Source of the DNA: Dictyostelium discoideum
Taxonomy: Eukaryota
Direction: 5' to 3'
Length of the DNA stretch: 64,000 nt
Assembly: GCA_000004695.1 (NCBI GenBank)
Contig: CM000152.2
Span: 4,448,001 to 4,512,000, forward strand
Shown: piece by piece, positions 50,697 to 59,222 of the stretch
How positions within the stretch are numbered: position 1 is the first letter of the stretch
Layout of the letters: every line of letters begins with the position of its first letter
Translations under genes and position numbers: made by a program
The notes under the pieces: generated by a model
The model's database searches: none
What the model was told of the DNA's origin: nothing
What the model saw: the letters and a program-made list of their open reading frames with translations, nothing else

Positions 50697-52570
50697 TTAA
50701 TTTGATTTTGGAGCTTCAGTGGTAGTTGGGGCAGCAGTGGTGGTAGTGACTGGTTTGGAGACTTGTTCTGGTTTCATAGCTGGGAAAAGAATAACTTCTT
50801 TAATGTTATAAGTATCAGACATTAACATAGCGAAACGATCGATACCAAGACCGAAACCACCAGTTGGTGGAAGACCATATTCGAGTGAGGTAGTGAAAAC
50901 TTTATCGATAAGCATAGATTCATCATCACCGGCAGCTTTAGCTTTAGCTTGTTCAGCGAAACGTTCGATTTGAACGAATGGATTATTTAATTCGGTGTAA
51001 GCATTACAGATTTCTTTGGTGTTGACAAAGAGTTCGAAACGTTCAGTTAATTGTGGTTTCTCTCTGTGATATTTGGAGAGTGGTGACATAATTTCTGGAT
51101 GATTGATGATGAAGGTTGGATTGATACATTGTACTTCTAAATATTCACCAACAAGTTTATCTAATAAACGAGCGGTAGTTTGTGGAGCAGAGCATTCAAC
51201 TTTACGTTCACGACAGGTTTTAACTAAAAATTCACGACATTCTTCACTGGTGTATGGGGTTGGAATCTTTTCACCAATGATTGCTTCCAAATCGGCAATC
51301 ATATCGATCTTTCTCCATGGTGAAGAGAAATCGATTTCGATTTCCTTACCTGATGGACCATCTGGGTGATATTTAATTTTGAGGGAACCATGGATACTCA
51401 TTACGATGGATTGGAGTAATTGTTCGGTCATGGTGTAGAGATCATTATAATCAGCGTATGCCATATAGAACTCGCAAGTGGTGAACTCTGGGTTATGGGT
51501 GTGATCGATATCTTCATTTCTGAATTGTTTACCAATTTCATAGACACGATCCATACCACCGACAACCAATTGTTTAAGGTAGAGTTCTGGTGCAATTCTC
51601 ATAAAGAGATCCATGTTGAGGGCGTTGTGATGGGTAAGGAATGGTTTAGCGGCGGCACCACCTGCGATCATATTCATCATTGGTGTTTCGACTTCAATGA
51701 AACCTAAATTGTCGAGATAACGTCTTACACCTTGAATAACCTTTGAACGAATGATAAAGTTCTTCTTTACACTTTCATTGCAAATCATATCCAAATAACG
51801 TTGTCTGAATCTGGTTTCTGGGTCTGTTAAACCTGAGGCTGCCTTTGGTAACATATGTAAACATGGTGATAATAAAATAACCTCTGTGGCAAATAATGAA
51901 AGTTCACCAGTCTTTGAACGACCTGGTGTACCTTTGGCACCAATAATATCACCACGTCTTAAGAGACCATTGATTTTAACGTAATCTTCTTCACATGATG
52001 CGTATGCACGTTTGTTAACTAAAACTTGTACTTTGTTGAACTCACCAGTGATATCGTAGAAAACTAAACCTGATCCTGCTGCTCTCTTACTTAAAACACG
52101 ACCTGCAATTGATACAACTTGAGTTGATGGTTCACCATCTTTTTCAAGAACTGAAAATTCTTCAACAAATTTTGGTAATTGATGTGAAACTTCAAATTTA
52201 TGTGGCCATGGGTTAACACCAATATCAGCACTTGTTAATTGTTTAGTACGATTTTCTTTATACATTGATGGATCGAAATCTTCTTCATCATTCTTTTTGG
52301 CTGGTGCTCTTAAATATTAAAATTAATATATATAAATAAAATATATTTTTATATTTATTTAAATAAATAAATAAATAAATAAATAAAAAAAAAAATGAAA
52401 AAAAAAAAATTGTTAGAAATAAGTTCTGAGAAAAATGAGTAGTATTTGTAAATATTAAAAAAAAAAAAAAAAAAATTAAAAAATAAAATAAAATAGGATA
52501 TTAAAAATTTTAATAAAAGAAAAGGAAATAAATAAATTATTTAAACCAAATATTTCATTTCCGAAATTAT

Positions 52571-52688: not shown

Positions 52689-52739
52689 TACATACTGTTT
52701 AGCTGGTTGTTTGGCTGGAGCTGGAGCTGGAGTTGTCAT
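50697..52739 (-). CDS. Lysyl-tRNA synthetase, class II (eukaryotic cytoplasmic type). Two exons at about 52696-52739 and 50697-52308, giving about 551 aa.
   Basis: Exon 1 encodes [14 protein letters not shown](Q) and ends at a GTATGT donor (phase 2). Exon 2 (acceptor atttaag) encodes [23 protein letters not shown]... followed by the anticodon-binding OB fold and the class II catalytic core ([32 protein letters not shown]). Confidence 0.85.
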
Positions 52740-53130: not shown

Positions 53131-53720
53131 TGTAATATAAAAAAAAAAGCTATTATAAAATTTTATTTTTAATATAATTTTATGGTTTTATTCAATAATA
53201 ATATCAATTATGCATTAATTTTATTTCAATATTCAATTCTTTTTTAATGTTAAATCAATTTATTAAATTTATTGAAATAAAAAAAAAAATAAAAATAAAA
53301 ATAAACCAAAATTGGAATTATATAATGCAATTTAATTATTATTTATTCCAATACATTTTTATTTTAATGGAAACTTATTTACACTTCCATAATTTAAAAT
53401 AACCATGTGGAAGTAAACCTATTTATTCCATGTTTTTTTTTAAACGGGAATAGAATGCTCTATTCTAAAAAGATAGAAAAAACAAAAAAAAAAACAAAAA
53501 AAATTAAATTAAACAGCCGATCGTTTATTTTATTGTTTTTTTATTTTTTTTAATTTTTTATTTTTTTTATTTTTCAATTTTTTTTTTTTCGAGTTAAGAA
53601 AAACTATAAAACCATAAAATTTTTTATAATATTTTAAATTAAATATCATTTTTTGTATTATTACAATTACCTTTTTTTTTTTTTTCAATAAATTAATAAA
53701 TATAAAAATTATCATTTAAA

Positions 53721-53832
53721 ATGTGCAAAAAGATTACTTGCGGTAAATGTACTAAACCAACTTGGGCTGTATGTATTTTATTTTTTTATTAATCTTATAT
53801 TTATTTTTATTTTTGTCTATGCTAACCATAAA

Positions 53833-53870
<38 letters not shown>

Positions 53871-53950
53871 TATAGGGTTGTGGTCAACATATTGAAAGTT
53901 GTTTAGCAGATGTACCAGTCAATGAAAGATGTGTTTGTGCTCGTACCTGA
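53721..53950 (+). CDS. Candidate 40-aa cysteine-rich mini-protein, MCKKITCGKCTKPTWA|GCGQHIESCLADVPVNERCVCART. Two exons at about 53721-53768 and 53876-53950.
   Basis: It is absent from the ORF track because it is split. Exon 1 runs from ATG to ...TGG GCT, followed by a GTATGT donor. A 107-nt AT-rich intron ends at a tatag acceptor. Exon 2 is in phase 0 and ends at TGA. Seven Cys and one His fall in a CxxC...GCGxH...C...CxC arrangement. This is a prediction only. Confidence 0.4.
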
Positions 53951-54254: not shown

Positions 54255-57063
54255 TTAGTTTAGTAAAAATTCAGATTTAACAACCCATCTCTTTGAAACT
54301 TTGCTAAATTCTGAAACACTTTTTAATAAAACCTTAAATAATGGTGCTTGTTCTTCAGTGATTGTTAATTGGAAATTGTTAATAATTGATTGAGTTGTGA
54401 CTGAACCACCTTTTTCCATAATAAAGTTAAAAATACTTTCGATAATCTCTGAAGAATTTAATCCACCAAATAATGTTTTAGCAGTTTCTTCCTCTTCAGC
54501 ATTTAATGTTGATAATAATTTTGATGATGAAAATCTATTATTATTATTATTTTTATTATTATTATTATTATTACTATTATTACTTTGATTGTTATTATTA
54601 TTATTATTATTGTTATTATTATTGTTATTATTATTTAAAAGTGTACTATCATTAAGTGATGTGATATTTGAAATTTGTTGAAGTGGTGATAAATGAGTTG
54701 GTAATTTTGATTTTTGACCAAATCTTCCGCCACCGCCACCACCACCAATTGGACTAGAAACTGCTAATGAAGTAGAGGTTGTAGTTGAAGTTGGTGATGT
54801 AATGAATGATGGAGCGCCACCAGAACCAAATCTTCCAGTCCAAGTTGGTGTATTACCAGTAATTTGTTCACGAGATTTCTTTAAAATACTAACAGCTTTT
54901 GAGGCGATTTTCTCAGCTTCATTCATTAATAATGAATGTTCTGGTCCTGATTGGTCCATAATTGTGTCATGTTTCAAAGCACTCTTTAAACCTTCTTTCT
55001 CGAATAAACATTTCAAAATATATGAATCGTCATTCTCTCCACTTGGTGAATTATTACCATCAATATCAGCATCAGCATCAACATCATTCTTGATTTTATT
55101 ATTATTATTATTTCCTATAATTCTTTTACCATGATTACCTCTAACTCTTTTTTTACTTTTGCTATCACTTTCATCACTACTACTATAATTATTATCACCA
55201 TCATCTTTTTTCTTTTTTGGTATTAATGGTGAACTACTATTTAAAATACTGTTATTATTATTATTCTTATTTTTAATTGAATTTTTATCATTTTTATCAT
55301 TCATATGTTCAGGTAAAATTTCAGAATTTGAACCAGAAAAGATATCACCAGTTTCTGAACCTTTTTTATTTTTTGTATAGGTGAATAAATCTTTGAAATG
55401 TTTTGATTTAAAGAATCTTTTTTGACGTGGATCTTTTAAGATTTTATTGGTTAAGAATTGTTTATAGATTTGACGATGATAGATTTTCTCTTCTATTGTA
55501 CCCAATGTGATTAGACGATAAATCGTTACAGCTTTCTTTTGACCAATTCTGTAGACTCTTTCCCTTGCTTGCATATCAGTTGATGGATTCCAATCTGGGT
55601 CAAACAAGATCACCCTATTGGCACCAGTTAAATTTAAACCTAATCCACCAACTTTTGTAGTTAGCAAGAAAATGAATAATGAAGGATCAATATTAAATTG
55701 TTCAACTAAACATTGACGTTGTCTAATTGAGGTCGTACCATCCATACGAAGATAATTGAATTGTGTTGAATCTCTAATATACTGCTCTACGATATCCAGC
55801 ATTTGTCTAGTTTGACAAAATAATAATACTTTATCACCTTGTTTAAACCATAGGGGTAGGATGGTTTCCACCACTTTTAACTTTGCACTTCTTTCAATGT
55901 TACCATAATCATGTGGTCTATCTTCATCACTGGCATCCATATGAAGTATATCAGGATGATTGCAAATCTTCTTCAAAATATCAATACCATAGAGAGCATT
56001 ACGCCTTCCATCCAATACTGATTTAATATCGTTACTATCTAAAAACTCCAAATAAAGTTTCTCTTGAAATGGTGTCAATGGACACATTAAAACCTGTTCA
56101 TTCTTTGATGGAAGTGATTTCAATACATCGGATTTCACTCTTCTAAGCATGTATGGTGAGATTAAATCACGTAATGCCACTGCACATTTATAGGCTGCTT
56201 GAACTTGTATTGGAGATGCATTGGCAAATCCACCAACGGAAATGGGTAATGAAAATTGAGATTTAAAAATTGGCAATGTTCCTAACCTACCAGGGAAAAC
56301 AAAATCAAAAAGTGACCATAACTCTGTTAATTTGTTTTGAATTGGCGAACCTGATAAAATCACCCTATGTGGAGTTTGAAGTTGTTTACAAGATAGTGTA
56401 ATCTCTGCATCTGGATTACGAATTTTATGACCTTCATCTAAAATAACATATTCCCAATGATACTTTAACAATATCTCTTGATTTATACGAATTGAATCAA
56501 ATGTTGTCAAAAGTATATGCCCCTTTTCTGCAATCTTTTTAACAATATCTTCTTTATCACTACCATCATTACCACCACCACCACTACCACTTGAATGAAA
56601 TAAACCAACTCTAAATGGTGGCCACCATTTATGAAACTCTTTAATCCAATTAGAAAGTAATGTAGCTGGCGCAACAATTAAAGCAGGACCACCTAATCTT
56701 CTACTATAATGAAGTGATGCCAAGAATGAAACGATTTGTACGGTTTTACCTAAACCCATTTCATCACCAACAATACCACCAGTTTCTTGACAATGCAATT
56801 CATATAACCAACGAACACACGTAACTTGATATTCAAATAAATTCTTATAAATATCAAATGGTATCTTAAAATTTTCATCAATTTCATAATCATCACCAAT
56901 TATTTCTTCTTCAGCTTCTTTTTCTTCTTCTTCTTCAAATATTTTTTCAATTTCATTATTATTATTTTTATTTAAAACTGCTTCTTCATCTAATTTTTCA
57001 TTATTTAAATATTCATCCTCAGCTAAATCATATTGACTTGGATATAATTCATCTTCATTTTCT

Positions 57064-57095
<32 letters not shown>

Positions 57096-58854
57096 TTTCA
57101 TTAAATTATCAGTATATTTCTCTAATACTTCAAGTCTTTTCTTTTGATCCATTTTCTTTATACGATCTCTAATTTTCTTTTTCTTCCATTCTAATAATCT
57201 CTTTTGATAAACTTTTTCATTACCATCATCAGTCCATCTCTCTTTATGAATGTTTAATAATTCTTTTGGTATACGATCATCATAATCAATTTTTTCATCT
57301 TCATCATCTTCATCTTCGTCATCATTGTCATCATCATCATCCACGTCTTGTTTTCTTTTTCTTTTATTATTTGAAATTGTACTTTTTATTGATTTTTTAT
57401 TCTTTTTTAATGTAAATTCTTCTTCAATTTCATCTTCATCTTCATCTTCATTATCTTCAATTTCAATTTCTTTATAATCTTCTTGATCATCATCATCATC
57501 TTCATCATCATCATCATCATTCTCTTCATTTTCATTTTCATCATTCTCTTCTTTTTCATTATCATCATCCTTTTCTTTATTAGTATCGGTAGTTAAATTT
57601 AATCTATTGGTAGGAGTTCTAATTCTACCACTAAGACTAATATCTAAATTTAATAAATCATCATCATTATTATTTTTTGGTTTTGATTTTGATTTTGGTG
57701 TCGAGATTTTTTTTAATTTTGAATTTGATTTTTTTGAAGATTTTGGTGGAGGAGATTCATCATTTTCTTCTTTTTCAATATCAATTTCATCTTCTTCATT
57801 TTCTTCTTCATTGTTATTATTATTATAATCATCATTATCATCTTCTGAAATATTTAAAGATTCCATATCATTAAAATCATCATAAAATTCTTGTAATTTC
57901 TTTGGTGGATCACGTTGAATACTATACTTTTTCATTTTTTTTTGTTTCTTTTTCTCTTTTTCAGTTAATACTTTCTTTTTCTTTGCATCGAATCTATTTG
58001 TGGTCTTTTTAATTGGTTTTAAGAATATTTTACTACCACCACTGCCACCACCGCCACCGCCTTGATTCTTTTCATTTTGTTCAGTTTCTTTCTCTTGGTC
58101 CAATGTTTTTGTGATATCAACAACGTCATCCAATACAATTGTTTTTTTATTTGTTTTTGAATGCATTTCAGAGAATGGTGTAATTTTACCAGTTCTAATT
58201 AACCTATCTCTTTCAGATTCAGTAGTAGAGAAACCAAATGCTTTATCGAATAAACTTGGTAATGGTAATTCACCAATTGATTTATTTTCACCACTACTAT
58301 TTGAACCATCTGGTTTTCTTTTTTGATCATTTATTCTTTTCTCTCTATCTGTTTTTATCTTTTCTTTAATTTCAATGATTTTATTTTGAGTTGATTTCTC
58401 TTGACTCTTTAAATCGCTAAGTTTCTTCTTTTCAAATGTTATCAATGATATTAAACTTGCAAGTGTATCTTTATCAATATCTTTATTCTTTTCATTGATT
58501 TCTCTTTCATTGTTTTTAAATAGAAATTGTTCTGCCTCTGAAATATCGTTTCTAATTTTCTTTAATTTTATATCAAGTTCATTAATTTCATTATATAGTA
58601 TTTCTTTATCAATTTTATGTATTACTTTATTTTCAACATAATTTGAACTATATTGTGTAACACCCAATTTCGATAAATCTAATGATTGATTATTATTATT
58701 ATTATTATTGTTAAATCTATTATTATTAGATGAAGTGGTGGTTGTTGTAGTCGTTTTAAATTTATTACTATTACCAGGGTCGAATCTACTAAAATTTTTA
58801 GGTAATCCATTCTTTTGTTGATCTTGTAACGATGCTCTACTTTTATTATTATTA

Positions 58855-58910
<56 letters not shown>

Positions 58911-59222
58911 GTTATTATTATTATTATTAGTTGTGGTAGTGGTTGTGGTTGGGTAAGAGCTTGTTCTTTTACCATGATACAATTGATTACCTTTACTTTG
59001 AAGAGATGATTGTGATGCTGTTGGATTTGATTTTCTTAAAAAATTAGGTTTATCATCTTTTGGTTTATTGGTAGTAGTATTATTATTATTATTATTGTTA
59101 TTATTGTTATTTATATTATTATTATCATTATTTTCTGTACTTGGTTTCCAACCTGGTAATATAAATTGTCTAATATCTTGTGATTTATTATTATTATTAT
59201 TATTATTACTATTATTACTCAT
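54255..59222 (-). CDS. ERCC6/CSB/Rad26-like SNF2-family DNA-dependent ATPase (transcription-coupled repair), 1655 aa.
   Basis: It is a single ORF. The SNF2 N-terminal domain reads ...LFEYQVTCVRWLYELHCQETGGIVGDEMGLGKTVQIVSFLASL...DEGHKIRNPDAEIT...LSGSPIQNKLTELWSLFDFVFPGRLG... The helicase C domain contains ...LLTTKVGGLGLNLTGANRVILFDPDWNPSTDMQARERVYRIGQKK... It has an acidic N-terminal half and N-rich tails. Confidence 0.85.

Follow-up and report, generated by a model that had tools for sequence, protein, structure and literature searches.

The gene described here occupies positions 53721-53950 on the plus strand of a 64,000-nucleotide (nt) stretch of Dictyostelium discoideum DNA (GenBank assembly GCA_000004695.1, contig CM000152.2, positions 4,448,001 to 4,512,000 of the forward strand), referred to below as the window, and its product is a mini-protein of 40 amino acids (aa) with seven Cys and one His (17.5% Cys). 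The window has a guanine-plus-cytosine (GC) content of 21.7% overall, and the surroundings of the mini-gene are typical Dictyostelium DNA. Exon 1 (53721-53768, +, GC 37.5%) consists of the ATG and 15 further codons, 16 in all (MCKKITCGKCTKPTWA); its end abuts GTATGT, and it holds the conserved Cys2, Cys7 and Cys10 and the aromatic Trp15. The intron (53769-53875, +, GC 10.3%) is 107 nt long, runs from GTATGT to TATAG and lies in phase 0 between codons 16 and 17. A pattern search of the intron found a branch-point-like CTAAC at 53822-53826 (+), 50 nt upstream of the acceptor and followed by a long T or polypyrimidine tract, which may function as the branch point. Exon 2 (53876-53950, +, GC 40%) keeps the reading frame and encodes GCGQHIESCLADVPVNERCVCART, closed by a TGA stop; it holds the conserved Gly17, Cys18, Gly19, His21, Arg34, Cys35 and Cys37, and also the non-conserved Cys25. 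This two-exon structure, with its 53768/53876 junction and reading frame, had been proposed from the letters alone (the sequence-only reading), and it proved exact to the base by sequence and translation, as did the donor, intron length, acceptor and composition of the product. The LysRS gene, placed in the same reading about 1 kb away in divergent orientation, indeed starts with its exon 1 at 52739 on the minus strand, and the two start codons are separated by 981 nt. The other neighbor of the mini-gene is a gene for an SNF2-family helicase.

The sequence-only reading had called the gene unannotated, which is wrong. All 40 residues (40/40) are identical to those of DDB_G0281439 (EAL66701.1, XP_640678.1, UniProt Q54TY3), a "hypothetical protein" from a 6.36-Mb chromosome of D. 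discoideum AX4 whose database entry assigns no function, domain or family. The gene is thus already known; the model is present in GenBank, RefSeq and UniProt, so that nothing is gained in terms of gene discovery, where the finding ranks as ordinary. A literature search for DDB_G0281439 and Q54TY3 found no paper, and an exact-protein locus look-up with the Dictyostelium protein returned nothing recorded.

Base composition sets the gene apart from its surroundings. The GC content is approximately 14% in the flanks and 10.3% in the intron, compared with 37.5 and 40% in exons 1 and 2, and in the 1,515-nt spacer between the LysRS and helicase genes (14.6% GC), no other GC island is as strong as either exon. 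Under the base composition of this spacer, the probability of 40 stop-free codons is 0.013, and that of at least seven Cys codons among 40 is 3e-7. In expressed Dictyostelium genes, GGT and CCA are the favored codons for Gly and Pro; the mini-gene uses GGT for Gly in 4/4 cases and CCA for Pro in 2/2. When the locus is compared with that of Cavenderia fasciculata by blastn, only the two exons align (E = 1.45e-13 each, about 83% nucleotide identity). The proportions of nonsynonymous and synonymous differences between the two species are pN 0.169 and pS 0.553, corresponding to a ratio of nonsynonymous to synonymous substitution rates (dN/dS) of about 0.19 at dS of about 1. The Cavenderia protein DFA_07888 is likewise 40 aa long and 73% identical to that of D. 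discoideum, so the conservation in other dictyostelids that the sequence-only reading had asked for is found, including an intron site within 1 nt.

The position of the intron also bears on the age of the gene. Relative to D. discoideum, the Cavenderia intron is displaced by 1 nt downstream, into phase 1 within the Gly17 codon, and the mucoromycete fungus Pilobolus umbonatus carries its sole intron at exactly the Cavenderia position and phase (1, codon 17). Two metagenomic gene calls contain extra in-frame sequence at the same TWAG^GCG site, apparently introns left unspliced. The Tetrabaena introns lie at other sites, and the Ostreococcus and Plasmodiophora genes are intronless. The position common to dictyostelids and Pilobolus argues for an old eukaryotic ancestry rather than a recent transfer. 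On the evidence of these comparisons, the mini-gene is a spliced, conserved protein-coding gene under purifying selection, and we regard it as practically certain that it is real and identical to DDB_G0281439.

A word-indexed protein search recovered only the mini-protein itself. In an exhaustive phmmer search against 1.84 billion cluster representatives, 641 proteins (counted as clusters at 50% identity) reached E <= 1e-3, the best of them 74% identical over the full length. The mini-protein is genuine and conserved. A profile built from 65 trimmed cores extended the family to at least 2,603 clusters at 90% identity. In a database of 5.8 billion sequences, the window protein matched two family profiles with E = 1.4e-16 (A1) and 1.1e-17 (A3); both profiles include the query itself, and the single-sequence phmmer search is the independent one. 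The named eukaryotic members are C. fasciculata DFA_07888, Plasmodiophora brassicae PBTT_08104, P. umbonatus BDB01DRAFT_850031, Ostreococcus tauri BE221DRAFT_207201 and Tetrabaena socialis TSOC_001061, together with proteins of the oyster Magallana gigas and a bdelloid rotifer, while the bacterial members come from many Actinomycetota, Myxococcota and Acidobacteriota. The relatives are 55-74% identical to the D. discoideum protein, fall in the same length class and share the same invariant Cys, His and Gly positions. It is therefore almost certainly a member of a conserved mini-protein family.

All of these named members are annotated as "hypothetical protein", and none carries a precomputed Pfam domain. 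Neither the 40-mer nor the bacterial members scanned scored above threshold in Pfam or NCBIfam; the match to DUF1096 (PF06493), with 13.2 bits and E = 0.13, was rejected as lying below the 25-bit gathering threshold. Sequence searches of the PDB, with the single protein and with the profile, returned only chance matches of Cys spacing to cerato-platanin and Kunitz/dendrotoxin proteins (E >= 0.2). The family is new to Pfam, NCBIfam, the PDB and the literature that could be searched.

Several longer proteins turned up among the matches. Most domain fusions (to a DDE transposase, TctC or DUF3470) were set aside, since they look like chimeric gene calls, and P0269 (421 aa), which falls in the same 90% cluster as P0020, shows no sequence resemblance to the family. 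Three metagenomic, eukaryote-like proteins (P0115, P0271 and P0027) carry a variant of the mini-domain, ending in RCxxW...C, upstream of an OTU-like cysteine protease domain (PF02338), with a C2H2-like element at the C terminus. The PF02338 match, at 23.3 bits, lies exactly at the cut-off. At least two different sequences carry the fusion, which may reflect either a genuine domain architecture or the merging of gene calls. P0064 (400 aa) contains four degenerate tandem copies of a family-like core with most Cys gone (MCQCGTGLRVPSWSGLRTHVEELREDVPV...), and by its sequence looks like a decayed repeated derivative.

The family motif is MC-x4-C-x2-C-x7-C-x2-H-x13-C-x-C, in which Gly flanks the fourth Cys on both sides, (G)C(G). 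The window protein agrees with it throughout (C2-x4-C7-x2-C10-x7-C18-x2-H21-x13-C35-x-C37, with Gly17, Gly19 and Arg34). Counted over 470 near-full-length domains, position 1 is Met in 464, position 2 is Cys in 469, position 7 is Cys in 469 and position 10 is Cys in 468. An aromatic residue stands at position 15 in all 470 (W 345, F 70, Y 55), and Gly17, Cys18, Gly19, His21 and Cys35 are present in every domain (470/470 each). Arg34 is found in 453 and Cys37 in 394. Hence Cys2, Cys7, Cys10, Cys18, His21 and Cys35 are at least 99.5% invariant. The spacing given in the sequence-only reading was right except for its first element, "CxxCGKC", where the true spacing is C-x4-C-x2-C (CKKITCGKC). Six of its seven motif Cys are conserved; the seventh, Cys25, is outside the conserved set, being Cys in 3/470 relatives and usually Val or Ala.

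Cys37 is absent from 76 of the 470 domains, and 59 of these 76 carry a His three or four residues after Cys35. Such an exchange of Cys for His suggests a metal ligand rather than a disulfide partner. The idea of metal binding, already raised in the sequence-only reading, fits the six Cys and one His kept across the family and these swaps at the last ligand, and we consider it likely that the mini-protein binds metal.

The core opens directly at Met1-Cys2, with no N-terminal extension (MCKK... at 53721 in the window protein). Of 115 database entries, 111 have Met immediately before the first Cys, also when the annotated start lies further upstream, so the true N terminus of the family is Met-Cys. 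Methionine aminopeptidase removes Met before Cys, and the mature protein probably begins with a free Cys. At the other end, many bacterial and some eukaryotic members continue into a tail of the form G-F/L-F/L-x-R-L-F/L-G-R/K (e.g., GFFARLFGR, SLLARLLGR), as in P0167, P0092/P0272, P0197 and most of the bacterial loci L007-L126 described below; this tail could be an amphipathic helix that binds a membrane or a partner. The dictyostelid proteins are bare cores without the tail. On sequence grounds, the Dictyostelium protein is the minimal form of an ancient uncharacterized family distributed over Bacteria and scattered eukaryotes.

AlphaFold2, run with a 118-sequence alignment, predicted the structure with a mean pLDDT (predicted local distance difference test) of 87.3 and a pTM (predicted template modeling score) of 0.52. 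The model has two strands (residues 3-6 and 13-16) and a short helix (22-25). PDB searches for a match to the predicted fold found none. Zinc-ribbon and treble-clef fingers, of about 40 residues, surround Zn tetrahedrally with four ligands, from a CxxC knuckle in a beta-hairpin loop and from C-x2-H at the start of a short helix, and the predicted secondary structure of the mini-protein is compatible with such an arrangement. In the model, Cys7 and Cys10 would form a knuckle in the hairpin loop, Cys18 and His21 would stand at the helix start, as in treble-clef and zinc-ribbon sites, and Cys2, Cys35 and Cys37 would remain as a second group of three.

The bacterial relatives offer a genomic context. 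With a back-translated KPTWAGCGxH DNA pattern, 120 loci were collected, of which 111 contain a mini-gene open reading frame (ORF). The ORFs within 3 kb of the mini-gene were clustered and the neighbors checked by Pfam, and the remainder of each 8-kb tile served as an internal control. The recurrent neighbors are rhodanese, a CsoR-family repressor (PF02583), TauE/SafE, thioredoxin, a fusion of an extracytoplasmic-function (ECF) sigma factor with ZAS, DUF4395 and DUF302. Close to the mini-gene (up to 500 nt away), the densities per 100 kb are 40.3 for rhodanese domains, 25.9 for CsoR-family repressors and 16.3 for thioredoxins, against 1.0 for each at 5-8 kb, that is, a 16- to 40-fold excess near the gene. 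Within 1 kb, a rhodanese is present in 41 of the 111 loci, a CsoR-family repressor in 29 and a thioredoxin in 17; TauE is present in 7 within 1 kb and in 19 within 3 kb. At least one marker gene stands within 1 kb in 61/111 loci, from several orders of Actinomycetota and from Myxococcota: 17/23 loci in Microbacteriaceae, 13/17 in other Actinomycetia, 9/15 in Myxococcota, 8/14 in Acidimicrobiia and 7/13 in Propionibacteriales.

The repressors next to the mini-genes have a characteristic signature. Copper sensors of this family are described by the pattern x-C-H-C, and persulfide sensors (CstR) by x-C-x-C without the His (PMC8643695). Among 34 adjacent repressors, 32 have Cys-x29-Cys, and the position of the copper-ligand His is occupied by Ala, Gly, Asn or Ser, with His in 0/32; by the published criterion, they are CstR-like. 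A subset of the bacterial loci thus has, as judged from sequence, the hallmarks of a CstR-type persulfide-stress regulon. In Trueperella pecoris, the mini-gene follows a CoA-disulfide-reductase-rhodanese fusion at a distance of 36 bp and adjoins a CsoR-family repressor, and in Saccharomonospora a rhodanese gene adjoins it and a PIG-L deacetylase gene lies nearby. The locus of a myxobacterial-type metagenome-assembled genome has no obvious link. In Streptomyces coelicolor, a sulfane-sulfur homeostasis circuit made up of a His-less CsoR-like regulator, a PDO-rhodanese, TauE and a rhodanese has been shown by experiment (PMC7533328). The bacterial relatives resemble the CstR-regulated sulfide and persulfide operons (S. 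aureus cst, E. faecalis CstR-CoAPR and S. coelicolor ScCsoR) in lying amid an x-C-x-C repressor, a rhodanese or CoA-disulfide-reductase-rhodanese, TauE and thioredoxin. However, the papers PMC7533328 and PMC8643695 describe no mini-protein of the family in those systems, and the Dictyostelium gene lies in no such cluster.

Two features of the bacterial loci stand apart from this pattern. In Myxococcota (for example at L019 and L103; also noted at L005/L006), the mini-gene often adjoins a fusion of an ECF sigma factor with a ZAS (zf-HC2) anti-sigma domain, and not a CstR-like repressor (5/15 loci), which may represent a different regulatory input of the thiol-oxidation type. Furthermore, two copies of the mini-gene are found in 19/111 loci and are directly adjacent in L020, L026 and L027. 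Such paired paralogs occur in several Microbacteriaceae (L008, 4960-5808; L020, 911-1218; L026, 6909-7216; L027, 1319-1626; L032, 7308-7861; L033, 314-1139). Paralog 1, of 37-40 aa, consists of the core alone and ends in RCxC; in paralog 2, of about 61 aa, W-C-N-G-K-H replaces R-C-x-C, and there is a ...GFFARLFGR tail.

The best explanation as a whole, which we hold to be probable, is that a real and known gene encodes a metal-thiolate mini-domain engaged in thiol and persulfide homeostasis. The seven Cys and His side chains would hold one or two metal ions, probably zinc. The first site would be built from the Cys7 and Cys10 knuckle in the predicted hairpin loop and from Cys18 and His21 at the helix start, and a second, possibly incomplete site near the termini would involve Cys2, Cys35 and Cys37 (His38/39 in some members). 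The mini-domain would act in cytosolic homeostasis of thiols and sulfane sulfur (persulfides), either as a sulfur acceptor or carrier or as a redox-sensitive partner of rhodanese-type sulfurtransferases. This role is proposed because, in bacteria, the relatives share operons with genes for a CstR-type repressor, rhodanese, TauE and thioredoxin. For the bacteria, the balance tips slightly toward a part in sulfur or thiol stress, as the gene neighborhoods suggest; for Dictyostelium, the same role would be carried over by analogy, and we rate it as possible but doubtful. Equally tentative is a more specific proposal, that an undescribed metal-thiolate fold of approximately 40 residues, with about 60% identity across Actinomycetota, amoebae, fungi, algae and some invertebrates, is dedicated to the handling of persulfides and sulfane sulfur as acceptor, carrier or redox-sensitive rhodanese partner, with a reactive site formed by the N-terminal Cys (bared by Met removal) and Cys35/Cys37.

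Several points weigh against this explanation. The partition of the ligands is drawn solely from predicted secondary structure and motif logic, and seven ligands cannot fill two tetrahedral sites without bridging or a non-protein ligand. The link to sulfur genes is missing in Acidobacteriota (0/11 loci with a marker) and in 50/111 loci overall; 27 of these 50 have less than 1 kb of sequence on at least one side, and no other recurrent neighbor was found in the unmarked loci. Many of the bacterial loci come from related genomes, so that the counts are not independent. The eukaryotic orthologs have unrelated neighbors, and the bacterial context may not extend to Dictyostelium. Finally, the S. 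coelicolor circuit is not reported to include a mini-protein (PMC7533328).

Five other explanations were considered, and in order of decreasing likelihood they are an iron-sulfur (Fe-S) protein, a metallothionein-like buffer, a functionless transfer from bacteria, a secreted disulfide-rich peptide and a chance ORF. The first, which we judge unlikely though the strongest of the five, would place a labile [2Fe-2S] cluster on Cys7, Cys10, Cys18 and His21, in the manner of CDGSH/NEET proteins, or a [4Fe-4S] cluster on four Cys, so that the protein would serve as a small electron carrier or cluster donor. CDGSH/NEET proteins are also small and Cys/His-rich, with a motif able to hold a metal or Fe-S center, and their motif is C-x-C-x2-(S/T)-x3-P-x-C-D-G-(S/A/T)-H. 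The three Cys and one His of the mini-protein, together with a Pro and Gly-Cys-Gly-x-His, resemble this motif in style, and the invariance of Cys and His would suit a cluster as well. The observed C-x2-C-x2-P-x4-C-G-x-H nevertheless departs from the CDGSH consensus in its spacing, and the protein has no Pfam match to zf-CDGSH or to any Fer4 family at E <= 10. Sub-threshold NCBIfam matches to RnfB and VhuG (E = 0.05-0.08) are weak and reflect Cys spacing only. Fe-S assembly genes are not recurrent beside the bacterial mini-genes, and no structural match was found.

Small size, a high Cys content and metal-holding Cys/His motifs are also what one would expect of a metallothionein-like protein that buffers or chaperones Cu, Zn or Cd and whose bacterial genes answer to metal-sensing repressors of the CsoR family, and the presence of PF02583 next to the mini-gene in 29/111 loci could be read in this way. 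However, the adjacent repressors lack the copper-ligand His, which marks them as sensors of persulfide and not of copper (PMC8643695), and neither CopA nor CopZ is recurrent in the neighborhood. Nor does the protein itself fit. Metallothioneins have a very high Cys content arranged in CC, CxC and CxxC clusters, no aromatic residues and, without metal, no fixed secondary structure. The mini-protein, in contrast, has only 17.5% Cys and an invariant aromatic residue at position 15, is strongly conserved (about 60% identity from bacteria to amoebae) and is confidently predicted to take a fixed fold of hairpin and helix (pLDDT 87). A buffer of this kind is therefore very unlikely.

The patchy eukaryotic distribution, and identities of up to about 70% between bacterial and amoebal sequences, might be explained by a recent bacterial transfer or a decaying relic without function in the amoeba. 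This is highly improbable, given the intron position common to D. discoideum, Cavenderia and Pilobolus, a codon usage and GC content native to the host, and a dN/dS of about 0.19 at dS of about 1. Still less probable is a disulfide-rich peptide destined for secretion, whether a signal, a toxin, an antimicrobial or the precursor of a ribosomally synthesized and post-translationally modified peptide, as its small size and Cys richness might suggest: there is no signal peptide, the core starting with Met1-Cys2 in 464/470 domains; the swap of the last Cys for His fits metal ligation and not disulfides; maturation or export genes are not recurrent near the bacterial loci; and bacterial and eukaryotic sequences hardly differ. 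That there is no gene at all, and that the very short ORFs are chance open frames in an AT-rich spacer or part of the untranslated region of another transcript, has the least to commend it and is effectively refuted by the conservation, with composition (the probability of 3e-7 for the Cys codons) and selection equally contrary.

With the metal-thiolate mini-domain as the preferred explanation, the value of the locus lies in what the known gene represents. A hypothetical protein turns out to be the minimal member of a widespread and unstudied family, with invariant ligands and a confidently predicted fold unmatched in the PDB. For the bacterial members, the link to CstR and rhodanese operons is statistically strong. 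Taken together, these findings lead to a testable hypothesis, that the mini-protein is a missing small component of reactive-sulfur homeostasis, and Dictyostelium is a tractable eukaryote in which this hypothesis can be tested. The locus also exemplifies how a conserved protein of no more than 40 aa can carry an annotation and yet stay functionally invisible.

The remaining observations concern the immediate surroundings of the mini-gene in the window. No paralog of the mini-protein was found within the window by tblastn, and no RNA family was recognized by Rfam between 52200 and 54400. The LysRS gene, like the mini-gene, has two exons, with a short exon 1 at 52694-52739 (-), an AT-rich intron of about 385 nt and the main ORF at 50697-52310 (-). 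On the other side, an uninterrupted ORF of 1,655 aa at 54255-59222 (-) encodes the SNF2-family (ERCC6/CSB-like) helicase, which contains long poly-Asn and acidic tracts, and converges on the 3' end of the mini-gene at a distance of approximately 300 nt. The promoter region shared by the LysRS gene and the mini-gene (53295-53470) includes a minor GC island at 53401-53450 (31% GC). The inverted repeats of this region are for the most part AT-rich low complexity and were set aside. Several palindromes containing GGAA/TTCC are also present, such as ACACTTCCAT...ATGTGGAAGT at about 53381-53414 and GAATAGAATGCTCTATTC at about 53448-53465, and from their sequence they are possible transcription-factor sites.

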